Shown here piece by piece: positions 1,066 through 46,959 of a DNA stretch of 64,000 bases (positions are counted from its first letter, which is position 1; each line of letters begins with the position of its first letter). The position numbers were made by a program, and so were the translations under genes. The notes under the pieces were generated by a model, which was not told the origin of the DNA, ran no database searches, and worked only from the letters and a program-made list of their open reading frames with translations. Source of the DNA: Heptranchias perlo (taxonomy: Eukaryota); NCBI RefSeq assembly GCF_035084215.1, contig NC_090364.1, forward strand, positions 4,464,001-4,528,000. Reading direction: 5' to 3'.

Positions 1066-1094
1066 GGCAAGAGCACAGCGCAACCTACTTAAAC

Positions 1095-3920: not shown

Positions 3921-4016
3921 TTTTTTTCTTTTTTTTTATTAGGCCCCCCTTTTATAAGAAGGGGTGGTGTGGGGTGTGCTTAACAACTAAAAACCAAACA
4001 AACCAAAACCAAGAGT

Positions 4017-7000
4017 TCAAATCAAAATTTTATTATCCTCGTTCAGGATGCACTCCAGCCCCTGCGGTGCCCACCGGTCGCGGAAAGCCTCGAGTGTACC
4101 GGCAGACACCGCGTGCTCCATCTCCAGGGCCACCCGGGCGCGGAGCAACCCGCGAAAGAGAGGCAGACAGGCCGAGCGCCCACCCCCGCGGACCGCGAGC
4201 ATCCTGGACCTGTGGATAGCCACCTTGGACAGGCCCAGGAGCAGGCCCACGAGAACGTCCACCGACCTGCCCGCCCCCCTCCTCACCGGGCGGCCAAAGA
4301 TCAGGAGCGTGGGACTGAAATGCAGCCAGAACTTGAGGAGCAGCCCCTTCAAATAATGGAACAGGGGCTGCAGTCTCGCACACCCGGTGTACAGATGGAA
4401 CACGGACTCCTCCAGGCCGCAGAAATCGCAAGCGGCCTGGGTGTCCGTAAAATGGCGTAACCGCCGGTTGCACGCGACTGCTCCGTGCGCCACCCTCCAC
4501 CCCAGATCCCCAAAGTAACACGGGAGGACCCCTGTATAGAGAGCCTCCCAATGGGGACCCCCGTCTCCGCCGGACGGCAGGATGGTACGCCAGGGCGTGT
4601 CCGGGCGAGAGACGAGGGCGAGGAAGTGGATGGTGTGCAGGAGCAGCCCGTACAGGAAATCCCTCCGCGCGGTGTGAAACGGCACGGAGGGAATTTCCGA
4701 GAGACGACTCAAGTTGTGAGGCGCGGCCCCCCGAGGGAGGTTCCGGGGTTTGGCGCCGAGGAGGAACTCCGTCCGAACGGGGGTCAGGTCGGACGGGATG
4801 GCTCCGCACGCCTGAGCCGCCTCCACATCCCGAGTGGAGTCAGGGCCGAGCGCCGATTTCAACGCCCGGATGGCGATGGCCGCGTCCCCGGCACGCCACG
4901 AGGACATCCGTGCGGCGAGCGCCCACGGCTCCAACCAACCCGACCCACCGCCATCCAGGACGTCCCTGACTCTGGTCACCCGACCGGCCACGGCCCTCCG
5001 CACCGACAGCCGCGAGTGGCCGAAGCCGATATCGCGGAGGAACGGATTCCCGAGCAGCGGCTCCTGCAGGACGGCCGCTACCCCTGACGGGCGAGAGCTC
5101 CGACCGGAGGCGACCATGTTCCAGACCCTGAGCAGATCCTGGTAAAAGACAGGCAGCTCCTGCAAAGACGTGCGGCCGCCCACCAGCGAGATGAACAGGA
5201 GCTGCGTGTCGTAGTTCAGGCCGTGCAGCTGGCGGAAAAAATACGTCGCCAGCGCACGCCATCTAAGAGGACGCTCAACGTACAGGTATCGCCGCAGCGT
5301 CCGAAGGCGGAAAGTTGCCACCTGGGTGCGGACGCACACCAGCCCCTGACCGCCCTCCCTAAGCGGGAGACTCAGGACCGCGGCAGCGACCCAGTGTATC
5401 CCTCTGGCCCAGAAGAAGTCGACAAACTTCTTCTGAATCTTGGCGACAAACTCAGGGGGGGGGGGTCAAAGTGACCAACCGGTACCACAACATGGCGGCC
5501 ACCAGCTGGTTTATGACCAGCACACGACCCCTGTAGGATAACACTCGGAGCAGTCCTGTCCAGCGCGCCAGGCGAGCGGCGACCTTGGCCTCCAGCTCTT
5601 CCCAGTTCGCCGGCCAGGCTTCCTCGGCAGGGCCGAGGTAGACTCCCAGGTACCGGAGGTGCGTGGTACTCCAGGCGAAAGGCCTGAGCTCCTCCGGCAT
5701 GGAGTCCACCCGCCACTGACCCACCAGGAGTCCGGAACATTTCTCCCAGTTGATCCTTGCGGAAGACGCCGCAGAGTAGACCTCTTGGCACTCGCGCATC
5801 CTCCGCAAGTCAAGGGGATCCGTGACCACGAGGAGCACGTCGTCGGCGTAAGCCGAAAGGACGACCTCCACGTCCGGCTCGCGCAGAGCCAGTCCCGACA
5901 ACCTCTTGCGCAAGAGGCGCAGGAAAGGCTCCACGCAGACGGTGTATAATTGGCCGGACATGGGGCACCCCTGACGCACTCCTCTCCCGAAGCGAAGGGG
6001 CGCCGTCAAGGATCCGTTAACCTTAATCAGACACTCCGCGGCGGCGTACAGAAGTCGGATCCGGGCGACGAAATGCGACCCGAACCCGAAAGCGCGCAGA
6101 GTCCCGAATAGATACTCGTGATCCACCCTGTCGAACGCCTTCTCCTGATCTAAGGAAAGGAAGGCGACCGACAGACCAGCCCTCTGGGAATGGTGGATCA
6201 GGTCCCGGACGAGATGGATGTTATCGTGGATCTTCCGGCCCGGGACCGTGTAGGACTGGTCGGGGTGGATCATGTGGGCCAGCACGGTGCCCAGGCGAGC
6301 AGACATCGCCTTGGCAAAGACCTTATAATCCGTGCTGAGGAGGGAGACCGGGCGCCAGTTTTTAAGGTTGCGGAGATCCCCCTTCTTAGGCAGCAGGACC
6401 ACGACCGCCCTGCGCCACGAAAGGGGCATCTCCCCGGTCGCCAGACATTCCCCCAGGACCCGCGCGTAGTCGCCCCCCAGGACGTCCCAGAAGGCCCTGA
6501 GGAACTCCACGGTCAGCCCGTCCAGCCCCGGGGACTTGCCCCTGGAGAGCTGGTGGAGGGCGCCGGTCAGCTCCGCCAAACTGAGCGGAGCGTCCAGACG
6601 CTCGGCGTCCTCCGGGCCGACCTTCGGCAAGTCCTCCCACAAAACTCTGCGCGCCTCCTCGCTGGACGGATCCGGAGAGAACAGAGCCTCGTAGAAAGAT
6701 CGAGCCCGGGCCCTGACTCCCTCCGGGTCCGAGACGAGGGACCCGTCGTCGGCCAGCAGCGTAAGGAGCTGCTTACGAGCCCCCCGCCGCTTTTCCAGCG
6801 AGTAGAAGAAGGGAGAGCCGCGGTCCAGGTCCCGCAGGAGCTGGAGCCGCGACCTCACGTACGCTCCTCGGGACCCGACCAGTTGCAGGTCCCTCAGAGC
6901 GTCCTTCCTCTCCTCGTACACCTGCCGCAGGGCCGGATCCTCGGCGGCCTGACCGAGACGGGACTCCAGGCCAAGCACCTCCTGCTCCAACCGCCTGACC

Positions 7001-7923
7001 TCGGACTCCCGCCTCTTAGTCGACCCCCTCGCGTACTCTTGACAGAAGAGGCGGACGTGAGCCTTGCCCACGTCCCACCATAGCCTCAAGGAGGAGAAGC
7101 CTCCCCGCTTCCCTCTCCAGTCGCTCCAGAACAGACGGAACGAGTCCCGGAACCGCGCGTCCTCCAGCAGCCGGTTGTTAAAGTGCCAGTACGCGGACCC
7201 CGACCGGGCGCGGAGCAGAGCGAGCTCCATCCACACCAGGTGGTGGTCCGAGCACGACACCGGCCGGATGGAGGCCGACGGGACGCAGGAGGCGTACGCC
7301 CGCGAAACGTACAGGCGGTCGATTCTGGTGCTCCCTCCTGCAGCCCTCACAAAGGTGAACTGGCCGGAGTCGGGATGGAGATTCCGCCAGACGTCCACCA
7401 AGTCGAAGGACCCGACCAGGTCCCTCAACTTCTCCGTCGCCGTTCGGGCACGCGCGGGACCGGAGCGGTCCCTCGCCTCGAGGGTACGGTTAAAATCCCC
7501 CCCGAGGATAATGCACTCGCCGGCGTCGACGGAGTTTAGGTAAGTAGACACTTCTTCAAAGAAGCTCACTTGCTCGCCCTCGGACCAGGGGGCGTACACG
7601 TTCACCAGGTGAAGCGGCACGTCCCCGTGGCGAAGGGCTACGTGGAGCAAGCGGCCCGGCACCGGCTCCTTGACCCCCAAGATCTCCGGCTGAAAAGTCG
7701 GGGCCAACAAGATGGCCACCCCGCTCGAAACGCTGGCGAGGTGACTCAAGTAGACCCCCCCTCCCCATTCCAGGATCCACGTGGCCTCGTCTCCCGGAAC
7801 GGTGTGGGTTTCCTGCAGAAAGCACACCGCATACTTCCCGTCCCGCAGGACCGAGAACTTGTCAAATCTACGGCGGGCGTCTCTGCCGCCGTTGATGTTG
7901 AGGCTGGCTATGGTTATCTCCAT
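4017..7923 (-). CDS. Copy B ORF2 (APE + RT + C-terminal zinc finger), frameshift in G-run at ~5455-5465
   Basis: FLQETH, GGDFN, SDHH; LDQEKAFDRVDH, GVRQGCPMSG, YADD; CDFC..H..C. G11 here versus G10 in copies C and D. Confidence 0.9.
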
Positions 7924-7952
7924 GGCAAGAGCACAGCGCAACCTACTTAAAC

Positions 7953-9996
7953 CTAACGCGCGGAGGGAGCGGGGCCGCTAGTCGACCGCCACTCCCTCAA
8001 GAGCCCGGTGAGGAGGGATCTGAGCCGACGCAGCCCGACCCCGCCGCCGTCCCCTTCCGCGGCCACGGACGCGACGGCGGCCAGGACCGAGCGGATTAAC
8101 TGCGCCGGCTCCGACCAACGGTCGAGGGCCAGCCGGACGCCATCGCGACGACGGCTCCAACCGGACGCAAAATCCCGGAGTTCCTCAACGGGGATGAGGG
8201 GAGACTCGGTGCAGGGCACGAGGGCGTCCACCACCTCACTGGCGGCGAACTCTAAATCCTCCCCAGTGCCCACCACCGAGTCCCCGTCCTCCTCCGGATC
8301 ATCGTCGCCCGCGGCCGACCCGCTCCCCGCACAAAGCGCGGAGAACGAGACGGCCGCGCCGGCCGGCCCCGCCTCCGCCACGATCCCACCCCCAGGATCG
8401 TCGGCAGAGGAGTCCTCCCCGGGCTCCACCGGGGGGTCCGAGTCAGACGGCGGCGCCGGGCGGGGACCCTCCCCAGCCTCCGAGCGGTGAAAAACCGGCA
8501 CCCGGATATAAGGGGAACCCGGGGAAACCGGGGAGAACGTGTACTCAAGTTCTCCCACCTCCCCCGGCTCCGAGCCCAGAGACTGAGAGGAGGGGGTCTC
8601 CCCACCCACGTCGCCACCGACCGACCCGGCCGGTGAGATATTTTGATTAAAACCCACCACCAGGTCGAGCAGGTCCTGGGAGAGTTCGAGCCGGGGGCAG
8701 ACGAATTTGGCCGCAACGGCCTCGCCCACCCCGACACCCAGGACGCCCGACCCGGTGAACATGGTAGTGTCGGGTAAATGCGGAGCCGCGACCCCCCCTA
8801 TCGGCGGGGTCTCTCCATCCCCCCCCGGGAGGCACGGGCACTATCTCCTCCCCCCGAGAGGTGGATGACCCCCGCCGCTGTTCGGATGTCACGGGCGGGG
8901 CCGCAGGATCCGCGACCGGCACCGACTCCCCTTCCACGGGGGGCCGTCCCTTAGCAGGGAGCCCGTTCGCTTCCGGGGAGTGGTGCCTCTTTTTCTTCCA
9001 GGAGGGTCGCGGAGGGAGGGGGGACTCCATGTCTGCTGGGACCCCCGCCTCCGCTCCCTCCTGATCACCCGCCAGCCCGGGCTCTGTCGCGACCGCGAGA
9101 TGTTGACTGGCCGCGGTCACGGCCTCGGGCTGACTGAGATCTTCTCTGTCCCGGGGACCAGCCTCTAGATTCTTCCTCTTTCTCCGCGCCTTTCTCTGGC
9201 GAGGGTTCCCCTCCTCCCCCCTGGCGGAGGCCTCGACGCCAACCTCCACCCGCGCAGTTGACTCTCCCGACGCGGGGGCGGGGTTGGGGGGAGGAGCGGT
9301 GGCGGCGCCAGCCCCGGCCGCCGAAGCTGTTTTGGCGGCCTGAGAGGCAGGGCAGTTCCTCTTCAGGTGCCCCACCTCCTTACAGGCATGGCACCGCCCA
9401 CCCTCTGCCGTCCAAAAGACGCGGTAAGGGGTCCCCTCGTGGAGGGCGTTAAAGCCCCCCTCCGTAACCTCCTCCCGTGCCAGCTTGACGAATGCCTGGC
9501 GACGGAAGGAGTAAACATGCCGGAGGCTGTTCTCCCTGAGTCCGAGCGGCAGCGGCGTTACCCCCGACCTCACCTCCCCCAGTTGACGTAGGTGGGGGAG
9601 GAGGAGCTCGTCCGACAGGAAAGGCGGGACGTTGGATAAAATGACTCGCTGCGCGGTGGCCTCCAGCGGGTCCACCGGCAGGAAGGTCCCGCCAACCGTG
9701 AGCCCCTTACTAAGGGCCAGGGACACCGCCCGCTCGGACCTCAGGAAGAACACCGCCCTCCCGTACATTTTCGAGGCCGCGACGATGGCCGAGGGGCCGA
9801 CAACCTCGGCCATGGCCTTAACGCAGGCCTCAATGGTCATGTTGGGGTGGGCGTAGCTCTTCACCCCATGCTTCCTCGTAATGAGGCGGAAAGGCGCCGG
9901 CCCAGCAGGAGCGGCACGAACTGTAGGAGCGGCCCCCGAGGTAACCGCCGCATACGTCCTGCTGGGTCCCGGCACCGGCGAAGATGGTGAAGCCAT
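7953..9996 (-). CDS. Copy B ORF1, frameshift in C-run near 8820
   Basis: ORFs 8647..9996 and 7953..8762 together match ORF1 of copy A. Confidence 0.85.
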
Positions 9997-10406
9997 GACC
10001 TAAAGAGCCACACCCACCCCAAGTCTCAGGCCTTTGGATTGAAATTGGCCTCTTTTTTTTAAATGAAAACCTTGAGGAAAACCTCTCTCCCCGAATCCCA
10101 GTGCTTGGATGGGAGAGGGGCCCCTTTGTTGGTTTTTAAATTCCCCAAGAACACCCCGGAGAGCAAGGGAATATCCCAGAGAGCAGGAGAAGGTGGGAGG
10201 GATGGATGGCGGAATGGGAAGGACCGACCACCTCTTCCTCCCACTGGTTGGTGCTCTTTTTCTCCTTCTCCCTCCCTCCTTGTTGATGGTGGTTTCTCCT
10301 TCTCCCCAAGGGACCCAGGCAAGGGCCTGCTCTCTCTGCTCTCTCTGCTCTCCACTCCACTCAGTGGCAGTCCAGCCACAAACACCTCCAAGGCCTTGCT
10401 GGTCTG

Positions 10407-10482
10407 TATTGCAAAGCTCTGATTGGCTCTGGATATCAATCTCTCCCCCAGAGCCCTGTCCTTTGTTAATTGGTGCTTGGAT
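10407..10482 (+). repeat. 76-bp ferritin-promoter fragment between Tx1 copies B and C
   Basis: Same sequence as 3845-3920; ends GGAT followed by poly(T). Confidence 0.9.
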
Positions 10483-10578
10483 TTTTTTTCTTTTTTTTTA
10501 TTAGGCCCCCCTTTTATAAGAAGGGGTGGTGTGGGGTGTGCTTAACAACTAAAAACCAAACAAACCAAAACCAAGAGT

Positions 10579-13500
10579 TCAAATCAAAATTTTATTATCC
10601 TCGTTCAGGATGCACTCCAGCCCCTGCGGTGCCCACCGGTCGCGGAAAGCCTCGAGTGTACCGGCAGACACCGCGTGCTCCATCTCCAGGGCCACCCGGG
10701 CGCGGAGCAACCCGCGAAAGAGAGGCAGACAGGCCGAGCGCCCACCCCCGCGGACCGCGAGCATCCTGGACCTGTGGATAGCCACCTTGGACAGGCCCAG
10801 GAGCAGGCCCACGAGGACGTCCACCGACCTGCCCGCCCCCCTCCTCACCGGGCGGCCAAAGATCAGGAGCGTGGGACTGAAGCGCAGCCAGAACTTGAGG
10901 AGCAGCCCCTTCAAATAATGGAACAGGGGCTGCAGTCTCGCACACCCAGTGTACAGATGGAACACGGACTCCTCCAGGCCGCAGAAAATGCAAGCGGCCT
11001 GGGTGTCCGTAAAATGGCGTAAACGCCTGTTGCACGGGACTGCTCCGTGCAACACCCTCCACCCCAGATCCCCAAAGTAACACGGGAGGACCCCTGTATA
11101 GAGAGCCTCCCACTGGGGACCCCCGTCTCCGCCGGATGGCACGCCAGGGCGTGTCCGGCCGAGAGACGAGGGCGAGGAAGTGGATGGTGTGCAGGAGCAG
11201 CCTGTACAGGAAATCCCTCCGCGCGGTGTGAAACGGCACGGAGGGAATTTCCGAGAGACGACTCAAGTTGTGAGGCACAGCCCCCCGAGGGAGGTTCCGG
11301 GGTTTGGCGCCGAGGAGGAACTCCGTCCGAACGGGGGTCAGGTCGGACGGGATGGCTCCGCACGCCTGAGCCGCCTCCACATCCCGAGTGGAGTCAGGTC
11401 CGTGCGCCGATTTCAACGCCTGGATGGCGGCGGCCGCGTCCCCGGCACGCCATGAGGACATCCGTGCGGCGAGCGCCCACGGCTCCAACCAACCCGACCC
11501 ACCGCCATCCAGGACGTCCCTGACTCTGGTCACCTGACCGGCCACGGCCCTCCGCACCGACAGCCGCGAGTGGCCGAAGCCGATATCGCGGAGGAACGGA
11601 TTCCCGAGCAGCGGCTCCTGCAGGACGGCCGCTACCCCTGACGGGCGAGAGCTCCGACCGGAGGCGACCATGTTCCAGACCCTGAGCAGATCCTGGTAAA
11701 AGACAGGCAGCTCCTGCAAAGACGTGCGGCCGCCCACCAGCGAGACGAACAGGAGCTGCGTGTCGTAGTTCAGGCCGTGCAGCTGGCGGAAAAAATACGT
11801 CGCCAGCGCACGCCATCTAAGAGGACGCTCAACGTACAGGTATCGCCGCAGCGTCCGAAGGCGGAAAGTTGCCACCTGGGTGCGGACGCACACCAGCCCC
11901 TGACCGCCCTCCCTAAGCGGGAGACTCAGGACCGCGGCAGCGACCCAGTGTATCCCTCTGGCCCAGAAGAAGTCGACAAACTTCTTCTGAATCTTGGCGA
12001 CAAACTCAGGGGGGGGGGTCAAAGTGACCAACCGGTACCACAACATGGCGGCCACCAGCTGGTTTATGACCAGCACACGACCCCTGTAGGATAACACTCG
12101 GAGCAGTCCTGTCCAGCGCGCCAGGCGAGCGGCGACCTTGGCCTCCAGCTCTTCCCAGTTCGCCGGCCAGGCTTCCTCGGCAGGGCCGAGGTAGACTCCC
12201 AGGTACCGGAGGTGCGTGGTACTCCAGGCGAAAGGCCTGAGCTCCTCCGGCAGGGAGTCCACCCGCCACTGACCCACCAGGAGTCCGGAACATTTCTCCC
12301 AGTTGATCCTTGCGGAAGACGCCGCAGAGTAGACCTCTTGGCACTCGCGCATCCTCCGCAAGTCAAGGGGATCCGTGACCACGAGGAGCACGTCGTCGGC
12401 GTAAGCCGAAAGGACGACCTCCACGTCCGGCTCGCGCAGAGCCAGTCCCGACAACCTCTTGCGCAGGAAAGGCTCCACGCAGACGGCGTATAATTGGCCG
12501 GACATGGGGCACCCCTGACGCACTCCTCTCCCGAAGCGAAGGGGCGCCGTCAAGGATCCGTTAACCTTAATCAGACACTCCGCGGCGGCGTACAGAAGTC
12601 GGATCCGGGCGACGAAATGCGACCCGAACCCGAAAGCGCGCAGAGTCCCGAATAGATACTCGTGATCCACCCTGTCGAACGCCTTCTCCTGATCTAAGGA
12701 AAGGAAGGCGACCGACAGACCAGCCCTCTGGGAATGGTGGATCAGGTCCCAGACCAGATGGATGTTATCGTGGATCTTCCGGCCCGGGACCGTGTAGGAC
12801 TGGTCGGGGTGGATCATGTGGGCCAGCACGGTGCCCAGGCGAGCAGACATCGCCTTGGCAAAGACCTTATAATCCGTGCTGAGGAGGGAGACCGGGCGCC
12901 AGTTTTTAAGGTTGCGGAGATCCCCCTTCTTCGGCAGCAGGACCACGACCGCCCTGCGCCACGAAAGGGGCATCTCCCCGGTCGCCAGACATTCCCCCAG
13001 GACCCGCGCGTAGTCGCCCCCCAGGACGTCCCAGAAGGCCCTGAGGAACTCCACGGTCAGCCCGTCCAGCCCCGGGGATTTGCCCCTAGAGAGCTGGTGG
13101 AGGGCGCCGGTCAGCTCCGCCAAACTGAGCGGAGCGTCCAGACGCTCGGCGTCCTCCGGGCCGACCTTCGGCAGGTCCTCCCACAAAACTCTGCGCGCCT
13201 CCTCGCTGGACGGATCCGGAGAGAACAGAGCCTCGTAGAAAGATCGAGCCCGGGCCCTGACTCCCTCCGGGTCCGAGACGAGGGACCCGTCGTCGGCCAG
13301 CAGTGTAAGGAGCTGCTTACGAGCCCCCCGCCGCTTTTCCAGCGAGTAGAAGAAGGGAGAGCCGCAGTCCAGGTCCCGCAGGAGCTGGAGCCGCGACCTC
13401 ACGTACGCTCCTCGGGACCCGACCAGTTGCAGGTCCCTCAGAGCGTCCTTCCTCTCCTCGTACACCTGCCGCAGGGCTGGATCCTCGGCGGCCTGACCGA

Positions 13501-14467
13501 GACGGGACTCCAGGCCAAGCACCTCCTGCTCCAACCGCCTGACCTCGGACTCCCGCCTCTTAGTCGACCCCCTCGCGTACTCTTGACAGAAGAGGCGGAC
13601 GTGAGCCTTGCCCACGTCCCACCATAGCCTCAAGGAGGAGAAGCCTCCCCGCTTCCCTCTCCAGTCGCTCCAGAACAGACGGAACGAGTCCCGGAACCGC
13701 GCGTCCTCCAGCAGCCGGTTGTTAAAGTGCCAGTACGCGGACCCCGACCGGGCGCGGAGCAGAGCGAGCTCCATCCACACCAGGTGGTGGTCCGAGCACG
13801 ACACCGGTCGGATGGAGGCCGACGGGACGCAGGAGGCGTACGCCCGCGAAACGTACAGGCGGTCGATTCTGGAGCTCCCTCCTCCGGCCCTCACAAAGGT
13901 GAACTGGCCGGAGTCGGGATGGAGATTCCGCCAGACGTCCACCAAGTCGAAGGACCCGACCAGGTCCCTCAACTTCTCCGTCGCCGTTCGGGCACGCGCG
14001 GGACCGGAGCGGTCCCTCGCCTCGAGGGTACGGTTAAAATCCCCCCCGAGGATAATGCACTCGCCGGCGTCGACGGAGTTTAGGTAAGTGGACACTTCTT
14101 CAAAGAAGCTCACTTGCTGGGCTCCGGACCAGGGGGCGTACACGTTCACCAGGTGAAGCGGCACGTCCCCGCGGCGAAGGGCCACGTGGAGCAAGCGGCC
14201 CGGCACCGGCTCCTTGACCCCCAAGATCTCCGGCTGAAAAGTCGGGGCCAACAAGATGGCCACCCCGCTCGAAACGCTGGCGAGGTGACTCAAGTAGACC
14301 CCCCCTCCCCATTCCAGGATCCACGTGGCCTCGTCTCCCGGAACGGTGTGGGTTTCCTGCAGAAAGCACACCGCATACTTCCCGTCCCGCAGGACCGAGA
14401 ACTTGTCAAATCTACGGCGGGCGTCTCTGCCGCCGTTGATGTTGAGGCTGGCTATGGTTATCTCCAT
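10579..14467 (-). CDS. Copy C ORF2; 9-nt deletion in RT (~12462) and a frameshifting deletion near 11137
   Basis: ORF 10595..14485 runs out of frame after PDTPWR; the zinc-finger end is in ORF 10579..11142. Confidence 0.88.
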
Positions 14468-14496
14468 GACAAGAGCACAGCGCAACCTACTTAAAC

Positions 14497-16526
14497 CTAA
14501 CGCGCGGAGGGAGCGGGGCCGCTAGTCGACCGCCACTCCCTCAAGAGCCCGGTGAGGAGGGATCTGAGCCGATGCAGCCCGACCCCGCCGCCGTCCCCTT
14601 CCGCGGCCACGGACGCGACGGCGGCCAGGACCGAGCGGATTAACTGCGCCGGCTCCGACCAACGGTCGAGGGCCAGCCGGACGCCATCGCGACGACTGCT
14701 CCAACCGGACGCAAAATCCCGGAGTTCCTCAACGGGGATGAGGGGAGACTCGGTGTCGGGCACGAGGGCGTCCACCACCTCACTGGTGGCGAACTCCAAA
14801 TCCTCCCCAGTGCCCACCACCGAGTCCCCGTCCTCCTCCGGGTCATCGTCGCCCGCGGCCGACCCGCTCCCCGCACAAAGCGCGGAGAACGAGACGGCCG
14901 CGCCAGCCGGCCCCGCCTCCGCCACGATCCCACCCCCAGGATCGTCGGCAGAGGAGTCCTCCCCGGGCTCTACTGGGGGCTCCGGGTCAGAGGGCGGCGC
15001 CGGGCGGGGACCCTCCCCAGCCTCCGAGCGGTGAAAAACCGGCACCCGGATATAGGGGGAAACCGGGGAGAACGTGTACTCAAGTTCTCCCACCTCCCCC
15101 GGCTCCGAGCCCAGAGACTGAGAGGAGGGGGTCTCCCCACCCACGTCGCCAGCGACCGACCCGGCCGGTGAGATATTTTGGTTAAAACCCACCACCAGGT
15201 CAAGCAGGTCCTGGGAGAGGTCGAGCCGGGGGCAGACGAATTTGGCCGCAACGGCCTCGCCCACCCCGGCACCCAGGACGCCCGACCCGGTGAACAGGGT
15301 AGTGTCGGGTAACTGCGGAGCCGCGACCCCCCCTATCGGCAGGGTCTCTCCATCCCCCCCGGGAGGCACGGGCACGATCTCCTCCCCCCCGAGAGGTAGA
15401 TGACCCCCGCCGCTGTTCGGATGTCACGGGCGGGGCCGCAGGATCCGCGACCGTCACCGACTCCCCTTCCACGGGGGGCCGTCCCTTAGCAGGGAGCCCG
15501 TTCGCTTCCGGGGAGTGGCGCCTCTTTTTCTTCCCGGGGGGTCGCGGAGGGAGGGGGAACTCCATGTCTGCTGGGACCCCCGCCTCCGCTCCCTCCTGAT
15601 CACCCGCCAGCCCGGGCTCTGTCGCGACCGCGAGATGTTGACTGGCCGCGGTCACGGCCTCGGGCTGACTGAGATCTTCTCTGTCCCGGGGACCAGCCTC
15701 TAAGTTCTTCCTCTTTCTCCGCGCCTTTCTCTGGCGAGGGTTCCCCTCCTCCCCCCTGGCGGAGACCTCGACGCCAACCTCCACCCGCGCAGTTGACTCT
15801 CCCGACGCAGGGGCGGGGTTGGGGGGAGGAGCGGTGGCGGCGCCAGCCCCGGCCGCCGTAGCTGTATTGGCGGCCTGAGAGGCAGGGCAGTTCCTCTTCA
15901 GGTGCCCCACCTCCTTACAGGCATGGCACCGCCCACCCTCTGCCGTCCAAAAGACGCGGTAAGGGGTCCCCTCGTGGAGGGCGTTAAAGCCCCCCTCCGT
16001 AACCTCCTCCCGTGCCAGCTTGACTAATGCCTGGCGACGGAAGGAGTAAACATGCCGGAGGCTGTTCTCCCTGAGTCCGAGCGGCAGCGGCGTTACCCCC
16101 GACCTCACCTCCCCCAGTTGACGTAGGTGGGGGAGGAGGAGCTCGTCCGACAGGAAAGGCGGGACGTTGGATAAAATGACCCGCTGCGCGGTGGCCTCCA
16201 GCGGGTCCACCGGCAGGAAGGTCCCGCCCACCGTGAGCCCCTTACTAAGGGCCAGGGACACCGCTCGCTCGGACCTCAGGAAGAACACCGCCCTCCCGTA
16301 CATTTTTGAGGCCGCGACGATGGCCGAGGGGCCGACAACCTCGGCCATGGCCTTAACGCAGGCCTCAATGGTCATGTTGGGGTGGGCGTAGCTCTTCACC
16401 CCATGCTTCCTCGTAATGAGGCGGAAAGGCGCCGGCCCAGCAGGAGCGGCACGAACTAGGAGCGGCCCCCGAGGTAACCGCCGCATACGTCCTGGGTCCC
16501 GGCACCGGCGAAGATGGTGACGCCAT
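14497..16526 (-). CDS. Copy C ORF1, frameshifted near the N-terminus and at ~15385
   Basis: ORFs 15200..16552 and 14497..15375; small indels relative to copies A/B. Confidence 0.82.
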
Positions 16527-17223
16527 GACTCAAGGAGCCACACCCACCCCAAGTCTCAGGCCTTCTGAAGGATATTGGCCTTTTTTTTTAAAGTCAACCT
16601 TGAGGAAAACCTCTCTCCCCGAATCCCAGTGCTTGGTTGGGAGAGGGCCCCTTTTTTTGGTTTTCAAATTTTCCCCAAGAACACCCCGGAGAGAAAGGGA
16701 ATATCCTGGAGAGCAAGAGAAGGAGGGAGCGATGGATGGCAGAATGGGAAGGAGGGAGTCTGCAGGGGTCGGCTGCTGCAGAAGTGGGTGGAAGAGGGGC
16801 GGGGTTGCACCTTAAAAGGTGGATCTTCTTCTGCCTGTCTTCCGGTGGGCAGGGGGAGGAGATGTCTTCCCCAAGACAGCTGGAGCTGCCGAGGCTCAGT
16901 CCTCCAAAGATTTGAAGAAGTAAGTAACTTCACCCAGGCAGCTCCAGCTGTCCTGGGCCGGACACTTGGGGGGGAGCCCCCTGTCCTCTGAAGTCTTCTT
17001 CCTCCCCCTACCTTCAGCCGACGCACCTCACTGCACCGACCACCTCTTCCTCCCTCTGTTGGTGCTCTTTACTTCTCCCTCCCTCCTTGTTGATGGTGGT
17101 TTCTCCTCCTTCTCCTCCTTCTCCCCAAGGGACCCAGGCAAGGACCTGCTCTCTGCTCTCTCTGCTCTCCACTCCACTCAGTGGCAGTCCAGCCACAAAC
17201 ACCTCCAAGGCCTTGCTGGTCTG

Positions 17224-17383
17224 AACAAAGAGTCACTTTCAGATTGGTGGGAAGTCAAAGAGCCCAAAAGCAGTGACATCACTGAGACTGATCATCCAAA
17301 CCGGACTGTATTCCAAACCACTGATTGGCTCTGGGTATCAATCCCGCCCCCATAACCCGTCCTTTGTTAATTGGTGCCTGGAT
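17224..17383 (+). repeat. 160-bp ferritin-promoter fragment between Tx1 copies C and D
   Basis: Direct repeat of 24151-24310 (promoter of ferritin 1); ends GGAT followed by poly(T). Confidence 0.92.
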
Positions 17384-17488
17384 TTTTTTTTTTTTTTTTT
17401 CTCTTCTCTAATTAGGCCCCCCTTTTATAAGAAGGGGGGTGTGGGGTGTGCTTAACAACTAAAAACCAAACAAACCAAAACCAAGAGT

Positions 17489-20400
17489 TCAAATCAAAAT
17501 TTTATTATCCTCGTTCAGGATGCACTCCAGCCCCTGCGGTGCCCACCGGTCGCGGAAAGCCTCAAGCGTACCGGCAGACACCGCGTGCTCCATCTCCAGG
17601 GCCACCCGGGCGCGGAGCAACCCGCGAAAGAGAGGCAGACAGGCCGAGCGCCCACCCCCGCGGACCGCGAGCATCCTGGACCTGTGGATAGCCACCTTGG
17701 ACAGGCCCAGGAGCAGGCCCACGAGGACGCCCACCGACCTGCCCGCCCCCCTCCTCACCGGGCGGCCAAAGATCAGGAGCGTGGGACTGAAGTGCAGCCA
17801 GAACTTGAGGAGCAGCCCCTCCAAATAATGGAACAGGGGCTGCAGTCTCGCACACCCAGTGTACAAATGAAAAACGGACTCCTCCAGGCCGCAGAAAATG
17901 CAAGCGGCCTGGGTGTCCGTAAAATGGCGTAAACGCCTGTTGCACGGGACTGCTCCGTGCAACACCCTCCACCCCAGATCCCCAAAGTAACACGGGAGGA
18001 CCCCTGTATAGAGAGCCTCCCACTGGGGACCCCCGTCTCCGCCGGACGGCAGGATGGTACGCCAGGGCGTGTCCGGGCGAGAGACGAGGGCGAGGAAGTG
18101 GATGGTGTGCAGGAGCAGCCCGTACAGGAAATCCCTCCGCGCGGTGTGAAACAGCACGGAGGGAATTTCCGAGAGACGGCTCAAGTTGTGAGGCGCGGCC
18201 CTCCGAGGGAGGTTCCGGGGTTTGGCGCCGAGGAGGAATTCCGTCCGAACGGGGGTCAGGTCGGACGGGATGGCTCCGCACGCCTGAGCCGCCTCCACAC
18301 CCCGAGTGGAGTCAGGGCCGAGCGCCGATTTCAACGCCTGGATGGCGGCGGCCGCGTCCCCGGCACGCCACGAGGACATGCGAGCGGCGAGCGCCCACGG
18401 CTCGAGCCAACCCGACCCTCCGCCATCCAGGACGTCCCTGACTCTGGTCACCCGACCGGCCACAGCCCTCCGCTCCGTCAGCCACGAGCGGCTGAAGCCG
18501 ACATCGCGGAGGAACGGATTCCCGAGCAGCGGCTCCTGCAGGACGGCCGCTACCCCCGACGGGCGAGAGCTCCGGCTGGAGGCGACCATGGTCCAGACCC
18601 TGAGCAGATCCTGGTACAAGACAGGCAGCTCCTGCAAAGACGTGCGGCCGCCCACCAGCGAGACGAACAGGAGCTGCGTGTCGTAGTTCAGGCCGTGCAG
18701 CTGGCGGAAAAAATACGTCGCCAGCGCACGCCATCTAAGAGGACGCTCAACGTACAGGTATCGCTGCAGCATCCGAAGGCGGAAAGTTGCCACCTGGGTG
18801 CGGACGCACACCAGCCCCTGACCGCCCTCCCTAAGCGGGAGACTCAGGACCGCGGCAGCGACCCAGTGCATCCCTTTGGCCCAGAAGAAGTCGACGAACT
18901 TCCTCTGAATCTTGGCGACAAAATCAGGGGGGGGGGTCAAAGGAACCAACCGGTACCACAACATGGCGGCCACCAGCTGGTTTATGACCAGCACTCGACC
19001 CCTGTAGGATAACACTCGGAGCAGTCCTGTCCAGCGCGCCAGGCGAGCGGTGACTTTGGCCTCCAGCTCTACCCAGTTCGCCGGCCAGGCTTCCTCGGCA
19101 GGGCCGAGGTAGACTCCCAGGTACCGGAGGTGCGTGGTGCTCCAGGCGAAAGCCCTGAGCTCCTCCGGCATGGAGTCCACCCGCCACTGACCCACCAGGA
19201 GTCCGGAACATTTCTCCCAGTTGATTCTTGCGGAGGACGCGGCAGAGTAGACCTCTTGGCACTCGCGCATTCTCCGCAAGTCAAGGGGATCGGTGACCAT
19301 GAGGAGCACGTCGTCGGCGTAAGCCGAAAGGACGACCTCCACGCCCGGCTCGAGCAGAGCCAGTCCCGACAGCCTCTTTCGCAAGAGGTGCAGGAAAGGC
19401 TCTACGCAGATGGTATATAATTGGCCGGACATGGGGCACCCCTGACGCACTCCTCTCCCGAAGCGAAGGGGCGCCGTCAAGGATCCGTTAACCTTAATCA
19501 GACACTCCGCGGCGGCGTACAGAAGTCGGATCCGGGCGACGAAATGCGACCCGAATCCGAAAGCGCGCAGAGTCCCGAATAGATACTCGTGATCCACCCT
19601 GTCGAACGCCTTCTCCTGATCCAAGGAAAGGAAGGCGACCGACAGACCAGCCCTCTGGGAATGGTGGATCAGGTCCCGGACCAGGTGGATGTTATCGTGG
19701 ATCGTCCGGCCCGGGACCGTGTAGGACTGGTCGGGGTGGATCATGTGGTCCAGCACGGTGCCGAGGCGAGCAGACATCGCCCTGGCGAAGACCTTATAAT
19801 CCGTGCTGAGGAGGGAGACCGGGCGCCAGTTTTTAAGGTTGCGGAGATCCCCCTTCTTAGGCAGCAGGACCACGACCGCCCTGCGCCACGAAAGGGGCAT
19901 CTCCCCGGTCGCCAGACATTCCCCCAGGACCCGCGCGTAGTCGCCCCCCAGGACGTCCCAGAAGGCCCTGAGGAACTCCACGGTCAGCCCGTCCAGCCCC
20001 GGGGATTTGCCCCTAGAGAGCTGGTGGAGGGCGCCGGTCAGCTCCGCCAAACTGAGCGGAGCGTCCAGACGCTCGGCGTCCTCCGGGCCGACCTTCGGCA
20101 AGTCCTCCCACAAAACTCTGCGCGCCTCCTCGCTGGACGGATCCGGAGAGAACAGAGCCTCGTAGTAAGATCGAGCACGGGCCCTGACTCCCTCCGGGTC
20201 CGAGACGAGGGACCCGTCGTCGGCCAGCAGCGTAAGGAGCTGCTTACGAGCCCCCCGCCGCTTTTCCAGCGAGTAGAAGAAGGGAGAGCCGCGGTCCAGG
20301 TCCCGCAGGAGCTGGAGCCGCGACCTCACGTACGCTCCTCGGGACCCGACCAGTTGCAGGTCCCTCAGAGCGTCCTTCCTCTCCTCGTACACCTGCCGCA

Positions 20401-21394
20401 GGGCCGGATCCTCGGCGGCCTGACCGAGACGGGACTCCAGGCCAAGCACCTCCTGCTCCAACCGCCTGACCTCGGACTCCCGCCTCTTAGTCGACCCCCT
20501 CGCGTACTCTTGACAGAAGAGGCGGACGTGAGCCTTGCCCACGTCCCACCATAGCCTCAAGGAGGAGAAGCCTCCCCGCTTCCCTCTCCAGTCGCTCCAG
20601 AACAGACGGAACGAGTCCCGGAACCGCGCGTCCTCCAGCAGCCGGTTGTTAAAGTGCCAGTACGCGGACCCCGACCGGGCGCGGAGCAGAGCGAGCTCCA
20701 TCCACACCAGGTGGTGGTCCGAGCACGACACCGGTCGGATGGAGGCCGACGGGACGCAGGAGGCGTACGCCCGCGAAACGTACAGGCGGTCGATTCTGGA
20801 GCTCCCTCCTCCGGCCCTCACAAAGGTGAACTGGCCGGAGTCGGGATGGAGATTCCGCCAGACGTCCACCAAGTCGAAGGACCCGACCAGGTCCCTCAAC
20901 TTCTCCGTCGCCGTTCGGGCACGCGCGGGACCGGAGCGGTCCCTCGCCTCGAGGGTACGGTTAAAATCCCCCCCGAGGATAATGCACTCGCCGGCGTCGA
21001 CGGAGTTTAGGTAAGTGGACACTTCTTCAAAGAAGCTCACTTGCTGGGCTCCGGACCAGGGGGCGTACACGTTCACCAGGTGAAGCGGCACGTCCCCGCG
21101 GCGAAGGGCCACGTGGAGCAAGCGGCCCGGCACCGGCTCCTTGACCCCCAAGATCTCCGGCTGAAAAGTCGGGGCCAACAAGATGGCCACCCCGCTCGAA
21201 ACGCTGGCGAGGTGACTCAAGTAGACCCCCCCTCCCCATTCCAGGATCCACGTGGCCTCGTCTCCCGGAACGGTGTGGGTTTCCTGCAGAAAGCACACCG
21301 CATACTTCCCGTCCCGCAGGACCGAGAACTTGTCAAATCTACGGCGGGCGTCTCTGCCGCCGTTGATGTTGAGGCTGGCTATGGTTATCTCCAT
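17489..21394 (-). CDS. Copy D ORF2: intact APE endonuclease / reverse transcriptase / zinc finger polyprotein (~1300 aa)
   Basis: ORF 17489..21412 uninterrupted; first ATG at 21394; catalytic motifs FLQETH, GDFN, SDH, YADD and CIFC..H..C present. Confidence 0.95.
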   Translation of the reverse strand: MEITIASLNINGGRDARRRFDKFSVLRDGKYAVCFLQETHTVPGDEATWILEWGGGVYLSHLASVSSGVAILLAPTFQPEILGVKEPVPGRLLHVALRRGDVPLHLVNVYAPWSGAQQVSFFEEVSTYLNSVDAGECIILGGDFNRTLEARDRSGPARARTATEKLRDLVGSFDLVDVWRNLHPDSGQFTFVRAGGGSSRIDRLYVSRAYASCVPSASIRPVSCSDHHLVWMELALLRARSGSAYWHFNNRLLEDARFRDSFRLFWSDWRGKRGGFSSLRLWWDVGKAHVRLFCQEYARGSTKRRESEVRRLEQEVLGLESRLGQAAEDPALRQVYEERKDALRDLQLVGSRGAYVRSRLQLLRDLDRGSPFFYSLEKRRGARKQLLTLLADDGSLVSDPEGVRARARSYYEALFSPDPSSEEARRVLWEDLPKVGPEDAERLDAPLSLAELTGALHQLSRGKSPGLDGLTVEFLRAFWDVLGGDYARVLGECLATGEMPLSWRRAVVVLLPKKGDLRNLKNWRPVSLLSTDYKVFARAMSARLGTVLDHMIHPDQSYTVPGRTIHDNIHLVRDLIHHSQRAGLSVAFLSLDQEKAFDRVDHEYLFGTLRAFGFGSHFVARIRLLYAAAECLIKVNGSLTAPLRFGRGVRQGCPMSGQLYTICVEPFLHLLRKRLSGLALLEPGVEVVLSAYADDVLLMVTDPLDLRRMRECQEVYSAASSARINWEKCSGLLVGQWRVDSMPEELRAFAWSTTHLRYLGVYLGPAEEAWPANWVELEAKVTARLARWTGLLRVLSYRGRVLVINQLVAAMLWYRLVPLTPPPDFVAKIQRKFVDFFWAKGMHWVAAAVLSLPLREGGQGLVCVRTQVATFRLRMLQRYLYVERPLRWRALATYFFRQLHGLNYDTQLLFVSLVGGRTSLQELPVLYQDLLRVWTMVASSRSSRPSGVAAVLQEPLLGNPFLRDVGFSRSWLTERRAVAGRVTRVRDVLDGGGSGWLEPWALAARMSSWRAGDAAAAIQALKSALGPDSTRGVEAAQACGAIPSDLTPVRTEFLLGAKPRNLPRRAAPHNLSRLSEIPSVLFHTARRDFLYGLLLHTIHFLALVSRPDTPWRTILPSGGDGGPQWEALYTGVLPCYFGDLGWRVLHGAVPCNRRLRHFTDTQAACIFCGLEESVFHLYTGCARLQPLFHYLEGLLLKFWLHFSPTLLIFGRPVRRGAGRSVGVLVGLLLGLSKVAIHRSRMLAVRGGGRSACLPLFRGLLRARVALEMEHAVSAGTLEAFRDRWAPQGLECILNEDNKILI

Positions 21395-21423
21395 GACAAG
21401 AGCACAGCGCAACCTACTTAAAC

Positions 21424-23453
21424 CTAACGCGCGGAGGGAGCGGGGCCGCTAGTCGACCGCCACTCCCTCAAGAGCCCGGTGAGGAGGGATCTGAGCCGAT
21501 GCAGCCCGACCCCGCCGCCGTCCCCTTCCGCGGCCACGGACGCGACGGCGGCCAGGACCGAGCAGATTAACTGCGCCGGCTCCGACCAACGGTCGAGGGC
21601 CAGCCGGACGCCATCGCGACGACGGCTCCAACCGGACGCAAAATCCCGGAGTTCCTCAACGGGGATGAGGGGAGACTCGGTGTCGGGCACGAGGGCGTCC
21701 ACCACCTCACTGGTGGCGAACTCCAAATCCTCCCCAGTGCCCACCACCGAGTCCCCGTCCTCCTCCGGGTCATCGTCGCCCGCGGCCGACCCGCTCCCCG
21801 CACAAAGCGCGGAGAACGAGACGGCCGCGCCAGCCGGCCCCGCCTCCGCCACGATCCCACCCCCAGGATCGTCGGCAGAGGAGTCCTCCCCGGGCTCTAC
21901 TGGGGGCTCCGGGTCAGAGGGCGGCGCCGGGCGGGGACCCTCCCCAGCCTCCGAGCGGTGAAAAACCGGCACCCGGATATAGGGGGAAACCGGGGAGAAC
22001 GTGTACTCAAGTTCTCCCACCTCCCCCGGCTCCGAGCCCAGAGACTGAGAGGAGGGGGTCCCCCCACCCACGTCGCCAGCGACCGACCCGGCCGGTGAGA
22101 TATTTTGGTTAAAACCCACCACCAGGTCAAGCAGGTCCTGGGAGAGGTCGAGCCGGGGGCAGACGAATTTGGCCGCAACGGCCTCGCCCACCCCGGCACC
22201 CAGGACGCCCGACCCGGTGAACAGGGTAGTGTCGGGTAACTGCGGAGCCGCGACCCCCCCTATCGGCAGGGTCTCTCCATCCCCCCCGGGAGGCACGGGC
22301 ACGATCTCCTCCCCCCCGAGAGGTAGATGACCCCCGCCGCTGTTCGGATGTCACGGGCGGGGCCGCAGGATCCGCGACCGTCACCGACTCCCCTTCCACG
22401 GGGGGCCGTCCCTTAGCAGGGAGCCCGTTCGCTTCCGGGGAGTGGCGCCTCTTTTTCTTCCCGGGGGGTCGCGGAGGGAGGGGGAACTCCATGTCTGCTG
22501 GGACCCCCGCCTCCGCTCCCTCCTGATCACCCGCCAGCCCGGGCTCTGTCGCGACCGCGAGATGTTGACTGGCCGCGGTCACGGCCTCGGGCTGACTGAG
22601 ATCTTCTCTGTCCCGGGGACCAGCCTCTAAGTTCTTCCTCTTTCTCCGCGCCTTTCTCTGGCGAGGGTTCCCCTCCTCCCCCCTGGCGGAGACCTCGACG
22701 CCAACCTCCACCCGCGCAGTTGACTCTCCCGACGCAGGGGCGGGGTTGGGGGGAGGAGCGGTGGCGGCGCCAGCCCCGGCCGCCGTAGCTGTATTGGCGG
22801 CCTGAGAGGCAGGGCAGTTCCTCTTCAGGTGCCCCACCTCCTTACAGGCATGGCACCGCCCACCCTCTGCCGTCCAAAAGACGCGGTAAGGGGTCCCCTC
22901 GTGGAGGGCGTTAAAGCCCCCCTCCGTAACCTCCTCCCGTGCCAGCTTGACTAATGCCTGGCGACGGAAGGAGTAAACATGCCGGAGGCTGTTCTCCCTG
23001 AGTCCGAGCGGCAGCGGCGTTACCCCCGACCTCACCTCCCCCAGTTGACGTAGGTGGGGGAGGAGGAGCTCGTCCGACAGGAAAGGCGGGACGTTGGATA
23101 AAATGACCCGCTGCGCGGTGGCCTCCAGCGGGTCCACCGGCAGGAAGGTCCCGCCCACCGTGAGCCCCTTACTAAGGGCCAGGGACACCGCTCGCTCGGA
23201 CCTCAGGAAGAACACCGCCCTCCCGTACATTTTTGAGGCCGCGACGATGGCCGAGGGGCCGACAACCTCGGCCATGGCCTTAACGCAGGCCTCAATGGTC
23301 ATGTTGGGGTGGGCGTAGCTCTTCACCCCATGCTTCCTCGTAATGAGGCGGAAAGGCGCCGGCCCAGCAGGAGCGGCACGAACTAGGAGCGGCCCCCGAG
23401 GTAACCGCCGCATACGTCCTGGGTCCCGGCACCGGCGAAGATGGTGACGCCAT
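21424..23453 (-). CDS. Copy D ORF1, frameshifted as in copy C
   Basis: ORFs 22127..23479 and 21424..22302. Confidence 0.82.
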
Positions 23454-24150
23454 GACTCAAGGAGCCACACCCACCCCAAGTCTCAGGCCTTCTGAAGGAT
23501 ATTGGCCTTTTTTTTTAAAGTCAACCTTGAGGAAAACCTCTCTCCCCGAATCCCAGTGCTTGGTTGGGAGAGGGCCCCTTTTTTTGGTTTTCAAATTTTC
23601 CCCAAGAACACCCCGGAGAGAAAGGGAATATCCTGGAGAGCAAGAGAAGGAGGGAGCGATGGATGGCAGAATGGGAAGGAGGGAGTCTGCAGGGGTCGGC
23701 TGCTGCAGAAGTGGGTGGAAGAGGGGCGGGGTTGCACCTTAAAAGGTGGATCTTCTTCTGCCTGTCTTCCGGTGGGCAGGGGGAGGAGATGTCTTCCCCA
23801 AGACAGCTGGAGCTGCCGAGGCTCAGTCCTCCAAAGATTTGAAGAAGTAAGTAACTTCACCCAGGCAGCTCCAGCTGTCCTGGGCCGGACACTTGGGGGG
23901 GAGCCCCCTGTCCTCTGAAGTCTTCTTCCTCCCCCTACCTTCAGCCGACGCACCTCACTGCACCGACCACCTCTTCCTCCCTCTGTTGGTGCTCTTTACT
24001 TCTCCCTCCCTCCTTGTTGATGGTGGTTTCTCCTCCTTCTCCTCCTTCTCCCCAAGGGACCCAGGCAAGGACCTGCTCTCTGCTCTCTCTGCTCTCCACT
24101 CCACTCAGTGGCAGTCCAGCCACAAACACCTCCAAGGCCTTGCTGGTCTG

Positions 24151-24480
24151 AACAAAGAGTCACTTTCAGATTGGTGGGAAGTCAAAGAGCCCAAAAGCAG
24201 TGACATCACTGAGACTGATCATCCAAACCGGACTGTATTCCAAACCACTGATTGGCTCTGGGTATCAATCCCGCCCCCATAACCCGTCCTTTGTTAATTG
24301 GTGCCTGGATTCATGGAAGATTCCCGAGTGGCTATCGGGGATTGTCAATCATCATTGGTGATGTCATTCCAAGGTTGAATGCCGGCTGTCCCAGTGGTAT
24401 AAATACAAGAGCTTGTGCAGAAAGTGGATAGTTCTATAATTTTCCGGGTAATAGTATTCATATATTAAAAAAAAGTGAAG
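24151..24480 (+). promoter_or_regulatory. Ferritin promoter module (gene 1; repeated before genes 2, 3, 4, 6, 7, 8)
   Basis: TGACATCA 24201-24208, CTGATTGGCT (inverted CCAAT/Y-box) 24248-24257, further ATTGG boxes, TGATGTCA 24359-24366, TATAAATA 24398; equivalent TATA at 30084, 35235, 40011, 49314, 54328, 59554. Confidence 0.8.
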
Positions 24481-27062
<2,582 letters not shown>

Positions 27063-29072: not shown

Positions 29073-29525
29073 ACAAATGGAGATGTTTGTGTGGGTGACA
29101 TTGCATTCAGTAATCTTCACTCCCTCTCATTCTCGCTGAATATCCTGAATTTTACCAAACAACATTTCATGAGAATTAAAATCAAAACAATTACACATCC
29201 CACAATGCTTTGCCCAGTTGATGCCCCCATGCTGCCAATCCTCAGACACACCCATTCTCTATATTAGAACTGGGGACGATTCACACCATCCATGGGATGG
29301 AATTTCCATTTCTCTGTCCAATGGTTGGTTTACAAATTCACTCAAGATGACTTGATTGCGTTGAATATTGTCTCAGTGTCACAATTACTTACAAGTAATA
29401 AACTTGGCCAGATTATGAAAAGCAACTTCAGTGAAAATATTAAATTATCAAATAATTCAAAGTTATGATTCTGAAAGATTTATCCAAAGAGGCACATTTA
29501 GGGAGGTCAAAGAACCCAAAAAGCA

Positions 29526-29870
29526 TCAAAGGTGACCATCCACAGGTCCTGGCTGGATGCGGCCCGTGGGGGCGGTCGCTCCGACTCTCTGCCTCGCTCC
29601 GCAGCATTCTCTGCGCCCGGGTGGCCCTGGAGAGGGAGCACACGGTGTCTGCTGGTAAACTTGAGGCTTTCCGAGACCGGTGGGAGGCGCAGAGCTCGGA
29701 GTACGTCCTCGACTCCGACAATAAAGTTATGATTTGAATCTGGTTTTGTTGGATTTCGTAATAAAGAAATGAAGGTGACAAAAATACAGGTGACACTGGG
29801 TCTAAAGACAGCAACACAAGTGCCCCATCTTAGAATTATTTTAGTCAAACAGAAGAAAAGAGGGAAAAAC
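29526..29870 (+). mobile_element. Old 5'-truncated Tx1 fragment in the ferritin 2 promoter, sense orientation
   Basis: Encodes ARVALEREHTVSAGKLEAFRDRW (ORF2 C-terminus); flanked by the 13-bp direct repeat aacccaaaaagca (29513-29525, 29871-29883). Confidence 0.85.
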
Positions 29871-30165
29871 AACCCAAAAAGCAGTGACATCACCGAGACC
29901 AATCACCCAAACCAGCCTGTATTCCAAAGCTCTGATTGGCTCTGGGTATCAACCCCTCCCCCACACCCCCTCTCCTTTGTTAATTGGTGCCTGGATTTAT
30001 GGAAGATTCCTGATTGGCTATCAGGGATTGTCAATCATCATTGGTGATGTCATTCCTTGCTCAAATGGAGGCGGTCCCAATAGTATAAATACAAGAGCTT
30101 GTGAGTGAAGAGGGTAGTTCTAGAATTGTCCAGGTGATAGTGAAGAGTGATAACAGAAATAGATG

Positions 30166-32564
<2,399 letters not shown>

Positions 32565-35320: not shown

Positions 35321-37655
<2,335 letters not shown>

Positions 37656-39789: not shown

Positions 39790-39866
39790 CAAAAAGCATT
39801 GATATCACCAAGACCAAACACGCAAGCTCTGATTGGCTCTGGGTATCAATCCCTTCTCCACAATGC

Positions 39867-45941: not shown

Positions 45942-46959
<1,018 letters not shown>

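Follow-up and report, generated by a model that had tools for sequence, protein, structure and literature searches.

Ferritin-promoter repeats of 76 and 160 bp in a Tx1-clade retrotransposon array of Heptranchias perlo are probably products of recombination

Introduction

Target-specific retrotransposons that lack long terminal repeats (non-LTR elements) can form tandem arrays at their multicopy targets, and we describe here an array that lies beside ferritin genes in a 64-kb window of the Heptranchias perlo genome (NC_090364.1, positions 4,464,001 to 4,528,000). All coordinates are those of this window, and all copy, junction and promoter counts were made within it. The elements in question resemble those of the Tx1 group (Tx1L of Xenopus laevis, Keno, Kibi, Koshi and Tx1-Mar) in having two open reading frames (ORFs), an APE endonuclease, an A-rich tail and a multicopy target (PMC1950540, PMC4494074). 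Targets reported for that group include a DNA transposon, U2 small nuclear RNA (snRNA), microsatellites, Mariner, Harbinger and LTR elements, whereas the present family is found at a CCAAT-box motif in the promoter of a protein-coding gene, with several usable boxes per promoter. A Tx1 family is counted as target-specific when more than 20% of its genome-wide copies are flanked by one target type (PMC4494074); from its junctions in one window, the family described here seems to prefer CCAAT-box sites in multicopy ferritin promoters.

Two tandem systems offer the closest comparison. In Drosophila, tandem R1 copies are separated by 33-nt spacers of ribosomal DNA (rDNA) and expand by unequal exchange (PMC5932611). 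The present array is like those of R1 in its head-to-tail copies, in the target preserved between them, in growth by unequal exchange and in one spacer of close to the same length (31 bp). It differs in that R1 uses a single rDNA site, while here three spacer lengths (31, 76 and 160) match three boxes, at least three promoter paralogs are involved and copies are mosaic. Within the Tx1 system itself, tandem SINEU-3 copies are arranged around a target-site duplication (TSD), and SINEU-2 and SINEU-3, which go with crocodilian Tx1-Mar, further resemble our locus in having two hot spots per target and, possibly, in 5′ extensions derived from the target at a master locus (PMC4494074). These, however, are non-autonomous short interspersed elements with extensions of 31–42 nt, and their target is a Mariner element (PMC4494074).

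Sharks have hundreds of clustered ferritin genes, with 155 and 179 copies of two types (bioRxiv 2024.09.09.611499), so a protein-coding family may serve as a multicopy safe haven in the way that rDNA and snRNA genes do. A literature search that had most subscription papers, Repbase and Dfam outside its reach showed, among the titles listed, no paper on Tx1-type insertion into ferritin or CCAAT-box promoters.

Results and Discussion

Layout of the array

GC-rich elements of 6.5–6.8 kb occupy positions 1–24150 and 60786–64000 on the minus strand, and between them, on the plus strand, four-exon ferritin genes form a tandem array that is rich in AT. The elements are oriented head-to-head with the ferritin genes, behind their CCAAT boxes. 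Read along the plus strand, the array runs A, T76, B, T76, C, T160, D, T160 and then into the native promoter and the ferritin ATG at 24481, where A to D are element copies and T76 and T160 are promoter pieces:

1–3844, minus strand: copy A, the 5′ part of a Tx1-clade element whose 3′ end lies beyond the window; 5′ junction of the kind called J76
3845–3920, plus strand: T76, a promoter piece from a paralog otherwise absent from the window, with an M-box target (ATTGG-N4-GGAT) at 3860–3872 and a G-box target at 3907–3920
3921–10406, minus strand: copy B, near full length, with about 280 bp of the 5′ untranslated region (UTR) missing at 10222/10223 and ORF2 split
10407–10482, plus strand: second T76, the middle of a 522-bp exact repeat
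10483–17223, minus strand: copy C, full length, with unlike flanks (T76 at the 3′ end, T160 at the 5′ end) and ORF1 frameshifted; 5′ junction of the kind called J160
17224–17383, plus strand: T160, with three ATTGG boxes, U (upstream) at 17243, M (middle), and G at 17370–17383
17384–20405, minus strand: 3′ part of copy D, comprising the poly(A) tail, 3′ end and reverse transcriptase half of ORF2; it differs from B and from C by about 3% each
17489–21412, minus strand: open ORF2 of copy D, 1307 aa, with APE endonuclease, reverse transcriptase and a weak zf-RVT
20406–24150, minus strand: 5′ part of copy D, comprising endonuclease, ORF1 and 5′ UTR; together with T160 it forms a 3,905-bp block that differs from C at 3 sites
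24151–24310, plus strand: second T160, with its G-box target intact, followed by the native promoter

A sequence-only reading of this stretch had drawn attention to the 160- and 76-bp repeats that bracket copies D and B, and both proved exact: 17224–17383 matches 24151–24310 at 160/160 positions and 3845–3920 matches 10407–10482 at 76/76. Chance is not an issue as their source. Both are promoter sequence. T160 aligns over 152–153 nt to two paralogous ferritin promoters at 83–86% identity, and T76 has paralogs at 80–88%; the length of T160 may be given as 160 or 161 because the next T is common to promoter and tail. T76 and the end of T160 share 87% identity, and none of the seven promoters in the window matches T76 exactly (best 88%), so the two flanks of copy C come from two different paralogs. 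On the same grounds we rejected T76 as a truncated T160.

The repeats extend into the elements

We find that these repeats are probably leftovers of recombination rather than the signature of a new insertion mechanism. The exact repeat around T160 measures 2,250 bp (15135–17384 = 22062–24311), and that around T76 measures 522 bp (3732–4253 = 10294–10815). The latter takes in an entire junction: the element 5′ end contributes 113 bp, T76 follows, and tail plus 3′ end add 333 bp, which makes the tail and first 333 bp of copy B identical to those of C. B and C have identical tails, whereas those of D and of two further copies near the window end, E and F, all differ.

Copy D is a mosaic. Over 13479–17383 and 20406–24310, copies C and D show 3 mismatches in 3,905 positions and no gaps, against 82 mismatches in 2,672 positions in the 3′ part of ORF2. 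The transition is abrupt (maximum chi-square 99.6 over 166 informative sites, reached in 0 of 2,000 permutations). Our first reading of the switch made C the mosaic, and we discarded it because the B–C distance is even across ORF2 (33/2,672 versus 12/995, p = 1.0; about 1.2%) and the B–D distance is not (86/2,689 versus 12/995, p = 0.0005). On these comparisons, a divergent 3′ half meets in D, at a switch between 20406 and about 20735, what was copied from the 5′ half of C together with T160. C and D also share a 2-bp gap near the start of ORF1 and an extra base in a run of C, both absent from A and B; such common ORF1 frameshifts fit copying at the DNA level better than two retrotranspositions. 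Exchange among copies has happened more than once, since a patch of B near its 3′ end sides with F.

These extents bear directly on the proposal of the sequence-only reading that the repeats are unusually long TSDs. Such an event would place the first nick at the G box and let a different upstream box set the second, thereby duplicating 76 or 160 bp in one step. It would account for the identical pieces on either side of B and D and for the fixed distance of both 5′ junctions from a box, and an exceptionally long TSD has been reported for R9 of Adineta vaga. R9, a non-LTR element bracketed by more than 100 bp of target, is superficially alike: its TSD is said to be 126 bp. It belongs to the R2 clade, uses a restriction-like endonuclease, targets rDNA and reportedly shows the long TSD in single insertions. 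Here, by comparison, the long repeat extends into neighbouring element sequence. At D, the repeat forms the last part of what was copied from the 5′ half of the neighbour, and the duplication itself measures 3.9 kb; the repeat at B lies in the middle of a copied 522-bp junction. The flanks of C are unlike, J160 recurs with a spacer of 31 bp, and solitary insertions in the window show duplications of 13 and 14 bp, neither assignable to the exact family. TSDs of SINEU elements mobilised by Tx1 are described as about 10–16 bp (PMC4494074). We regard a true long TSD as very improbable.

The near-identity of the copies also raises the possibility of partial misassembly, in which two haplotypes or paralogs were stitched together through the 3.9-kb or 522-bp near-identical stretches, creating copy D or the second T76 junction. 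The 5′ halves of C and D are 0.08% apart, which is compatible with an allelic difference, the region is a nest of repeats, and the ORF1 of A, B and C/D is broken by indels of one base in homopolymers. ORF1 is frameshifted in all of A–D (at 1632, 8819, 15384/22311 and 16456/23383, mostly in homopolymer runs), which may be either real decay or consensus error. A programmed frameshift common to all copies was considered and rejected, as the break falls at a different place in A, B and C/D. Against misassembly, the 3.9-kb ORF2 of D is open, which argues against a high indel error rate, and each copy has long stretches of private changes. Moreover, whatever the assembly, the J76, J160 and T31 junctions must be real DNA, and so must the 3′ junctions at the G box. 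We consider this explanation quite improbable, though not as much so as the long TSD.

Junctions and the target motif

The second cluster of elements, at the end of the window, supplies a third spacer:

60786–63038, minus strand: copy E, a 227-bp 3′ end joined at 5 bp of microhomology (61012/61013) to ORF1 and 5′ UTR
63039–63069, plus strand: T31, which is 31 bp long and a variant form of the beginning of T160; it closes with a complete ATTGG-N5-GGAT at the U box, and poly(T) comes next
63070–64000, minus strand: A-rich tail, about 105 bp called X2, and the 3′ 800 bp of copy F (63202–64000), cut by the window end

Copy E diverges from A–D by 5.3–5.8% in the 5′ region. Its 5′ junction falls on the same nucleotide as in C and D, but the next poly(T) begins only 31 bp further on, and its flank resembles T160 over just 29–31 bp. 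From this junction, T31 is the best estimate within the window of what the true TSD may be.

A-rich tails with 3′ junctions of the kind left by target-primed reverse transcription lie at 3921, 10483, 17384, 60786 and 63202. Every poly(T) in the A–D array starts after GGAT at one promoter position, the G box, and the element 5′ ends are then followed by a promoter piece. T76, T160 and T31 each end in ATTGG-N5-GGAT before poly(T), and the target is thereby retained at the tandem junctions. All three promoter 3′ junctions fall directly after ATTGG-N5-GGA and match a motif built from the G box at 8/8, a score reached by 6 of the 21,105 host T positions used as a null. The window holds 13 matches to the motif where 1.5 are expected, four of them then followed by poly(T); this excess is not independent evidence, because the promoter is repeated.

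From the 5′ junction to the next ATTGG, the distance is 19 nt in C and D, 17 nt in E and 15 nt in A and B. The ATTGG of the U box is present only in T160 and T31 (0/6 other promoters), and the GGAT of the M box only in T76 (0/7 promoters). J160 and J76 therefore occur just in those variants whose nearest box is the better target, and the distance implies a TSD of 28–33 bp, a length that the T31 spacer would fit and the T76 and T160 spacers would not.

A model of insertion and recombination

The account that we favour, with moderate confidence, is insertion with an ordinary TSD at one or another of the three boxes, followed by copying of the host spacers through recombination between neighbours. 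The ferritin promoter would present three reverse-CCAAT target boxes, U, M and G, and the Tx1 element would insert by target-primed reverse transcription, head-to-head with the ferritin genes, just past ATTGG-N4/5-GGA(T). A second cut 15–19 nt ahead of the same box would give an ordinary TSD of about 28–33 bp. If one element inserted at U or M and another then at G, 160 or 76 bp of host promoter would be left between them, and these spacers could afterwards be copied at the DNA level along with flanking element sequence. The A|B and B|C junctions would be two copies of one junction, and C would join a T76-type to a T160-type paralog. As for D, we infer that the 3′ half of a new element at the G box acquired C's 5′ half together with T160. 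One G-box insertion beside C and one unequal crossover with a chromatid lacking the insertion would produce the observed order. The same order would follow if unfinished cDNA invaded C during insertion. L1 cDNA is described as pairing with nearby homologous DNA and duplicating a segment, and such a route would yield the structure of D in one step; its templates, however, mostly measure less than 250 bp and lie no farther than 15 bp from the site, and the D block measures about 3.6–3.9 kb (bioRxiv 2024.08.27.596794).

Several observations weigh against this account. The three non-promoter junctions, which presumably are insertion sites, fit the motif poorly (6/8, 5/8 and 4/8; p = 0.011, 0.054 and 0.18). 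J76 is the sole independent offset, with a chance of about 15/160 in a range picked post hoc, and no 3′ junction at an M box was seen in the window. Nor does the window contain a single full-length copy with both of its own flanks, so that the TSD of about 30 bp is never directly visible. Of the insertions with short TSDs, one is an older, oppositely oriented relative and the other a tail of a sort that could come from any L1-type element. B, C, D and E must all be hybrids under the favoured model, and the evidence for B is weak: its 5′ end shows 0/184 differences from A and 3/177 from C. The 3/3,905 difference between C and D is also compatible with two haplotypes. At the fixed differences between two paralog classes, T160 has 3 sites of class I, 7 of class II and 1 other, and the part downstream of T160 has 3, 9 and 3, so that T160 may or may not be native to the downstream gene.

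The sequence-only reading had alternatively suggested that promoter sequence was carried with the 5′ end of the element. In this case, copies at the U or M box would be transcribed from the reverse-read ferritin promoter, their RNA would begin with 76 or 160 nt of promoter, and the cDNA of this head would pair at the G box and integrate. The proposal has several points in its favour. The elements stand head-to-head with the gene behind CCAAT boxes, the unlike flanks of C would arise without recombination across paralogs, and J160 is common to C/D and E even though these are 5.7% apart. Extensions of 31 and 42 nt from master loci are described for SINEU-2 mobilised by Tx1 (PMC4494074), and R2 integration is described as being helped by target-homologous arms (PMC12203849). 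Copy D is the main difficulty: its mosaicism with a neighbour and the common ORF1 frameshifts would call for an extra template switch onto an ORF1-dead RNA. In addition, the tail and 333 bp are exactly common to B and C, and the element's 5′ UTR of about 700 bp may hold a promoter of its own. On balance, we judge an RNA-borne head unlikely. Similarly low is the probability we give to a broader version, in which a vertebrate Tx1 lineage has become a specialist for CCAAT boxes in a protein-coding gene family of very high copy number, possibly through tethering by the CCAAT-binding factor. Inserting head-to-head and so driven by the host promoter, it would use a second box to place its second cut or its RNA start and thereby duplicate or carry 76–160 bp of promoter in one event.

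Under recombination after ordinary insertion, the claim that each insertion leaves a fresh target retains its factual part. The G-box target at 24297–24310 is intact, and the E–T31–poly(T) junction has kept its own. An ordinary TSD suffices for this outcome, and a double-insertion route is already known (PMC5932611); target regeneration is thus real but ordinary. The proximal promoter was likewise said to be spared. Between 24151 and the ATG (24481) it is complete and runs colinear with its paralogs, being intact to −330, but no benefit to the host follows from this, because the adjacent ferritin gene carries a nonsense codon. What the sequence-only reading had named as its own refutation, short TSDs together with an array explained by unequal crossing-over or misassembly, is largely what we find. 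Reading TSD length from array junctions would accordingly mislead, as the long repeats are best seen as recombination products.

Identity of the element

By the domains and similarity of its ORF2, the element is a Tx1-clade non-LTR retrotransposon. In Pfam, the ORF2 of copy D matches Exo_endo_phos (5e-12) and RVT_1 (8e-39), with zf-RVT below cut-off (9e-4). Xenopus Tx1 ORF2 is its best full-length named match, at 50% identity across 99% of the length, and the closest partial matches are from a ray (71%) and a shark (68%). In a reverse transcriptase tree of 22 of 23 chosen rows (P0098 was dropped as too short), rooted at the midpoint with no L1 outgroup, D groups with Xenopus Tx1, turtle, sturgeon and ray in a six-row clade with support of 100/100. 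A separate ORF1 in D and E has a zf-CCHC match just under cut-off (6e-4). As the ORF2 of D is open, the target rule is accessible to biochemical test.

Older and solitary insertions

Two short insertions in ferritin promoters have visible duplications:

29513–29883, plus strand: old 5′-truncated Tx1 relative, 74–79% identical to the young family and in the opposite orientation, with a perfect 13-bp duplication (29513–29525, 29871–29883)
39867–39908, minus strand: tail-only poly(T) insertion, with poly(T) at 39881–39894 between two 14-bp copies in a paralogous promoter; family not assignable

The old Tx1 insertion is one inherited event found in four of seven promoters (also near 39200, 48504 and 53757), and its duplication is a perfect 13 bp in two of them, with 9–10 bp remaining in the other two. 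At 48504–49111 and 39200–39798, the fragment is accompanied by foreign sequence (about 270 bp) that lies within the duplication and has an A-rich tract on either side, a pattern like that of 3′ transduction; the segment is shortened by deletion in the 29513 and 53757 paralogs. In the promoters near 35140 and 59460, the G-box target has been lost through a common 7-bp deletion, and these are also without the old Tx1 insertion.

The second 14-bp copy of the tail-only insertion begins 29 bp ahead of the G-box junction position. We did not count this as proof of a 29-bp geometry, as the insertion can just as readily be read as having a TSD of 14 bp at a T-rich/AA site. A different long interspersed element (LINE) fragment lies on the minus strand at 43580–45020, with a reverse transcriptase (Pfam RVT_1, 3e-27) in an ORF at 43643–44803. 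Its tail end resembles short pieces at 30524–30611 and 54764–54854, and no TSD for this LINE near 43600–45000 was found among 12 short repeat families.

Sequences around copies E and F

The last ferritin gene before E (60474–60785) ends abruptly in exon 2 at a T run, and 174 bp called X1 then follow, ending in an M-box-like site. Over 48 columns, X1 resembles DNA that lies about 200 bp upstream of ferritin promoters (0/300 shuffles in two of six comparisons), and it could be either a transduced flank or the promoter of a distant paralog. X2 (63096–63201), which lies between two tails and is a possible 3′ transduction, contains a 25-bp near-perfect palindrome at 63105–63129 and an ATTGG box, and has no Rfam match. 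As a candidate distant ferritin promoter X2 gave no signal, with 69–260 of 300 shuffles reaching its score. Rfam returned no match at gathering score in the window; two weak microRNA matches in 60400–63400, far under cut-off, were taken as chance.

Ferritin genes beside the array

The gene behind copy D is as follows:

24311–27020, plus strand: rest of the promoter and a four-exon ferritin gene, with ATG at 24481, a TGA at 25476–25478 in exon 2 and the normal stop codon lost

Seven other exon-2 copies carry a sense codon at the position of the in-frame TGA, and the missing stop codon is present in six other exon-4 copies. On these grounds the gene is a probable pseudogene. Insertions may drive gene loss in the cluster, as suggested by the nonsense codon beside D, the exon-2 break before E and the T76-type gene missing from the window. 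Pfam Ferritin was matched in two of four exons tested. In none of the window's ferritin 5′ regions (for example, 24400–24480) did Rfam find an iron-responsive element at gathering score, and a bacterial promoter scan, which is not applicable here, gave nothing.

Other units of the array show their own lesions. One at 45700–45960 is without promoter and exon 1, a deletion having joined upstream DNA to intron 1, and keeps exons 2–4; in the gene that begins at 35321, a gap of 2 bp in exon 3 (36983–37106) alters the frame close to the end of that exon. Ferritin exons (26313–26438 and paralogs) are 90–100% identical among paralogs, against about 72–88% for introns and promoters, a contrast that suggests selection or gene conversion acting on the exons.

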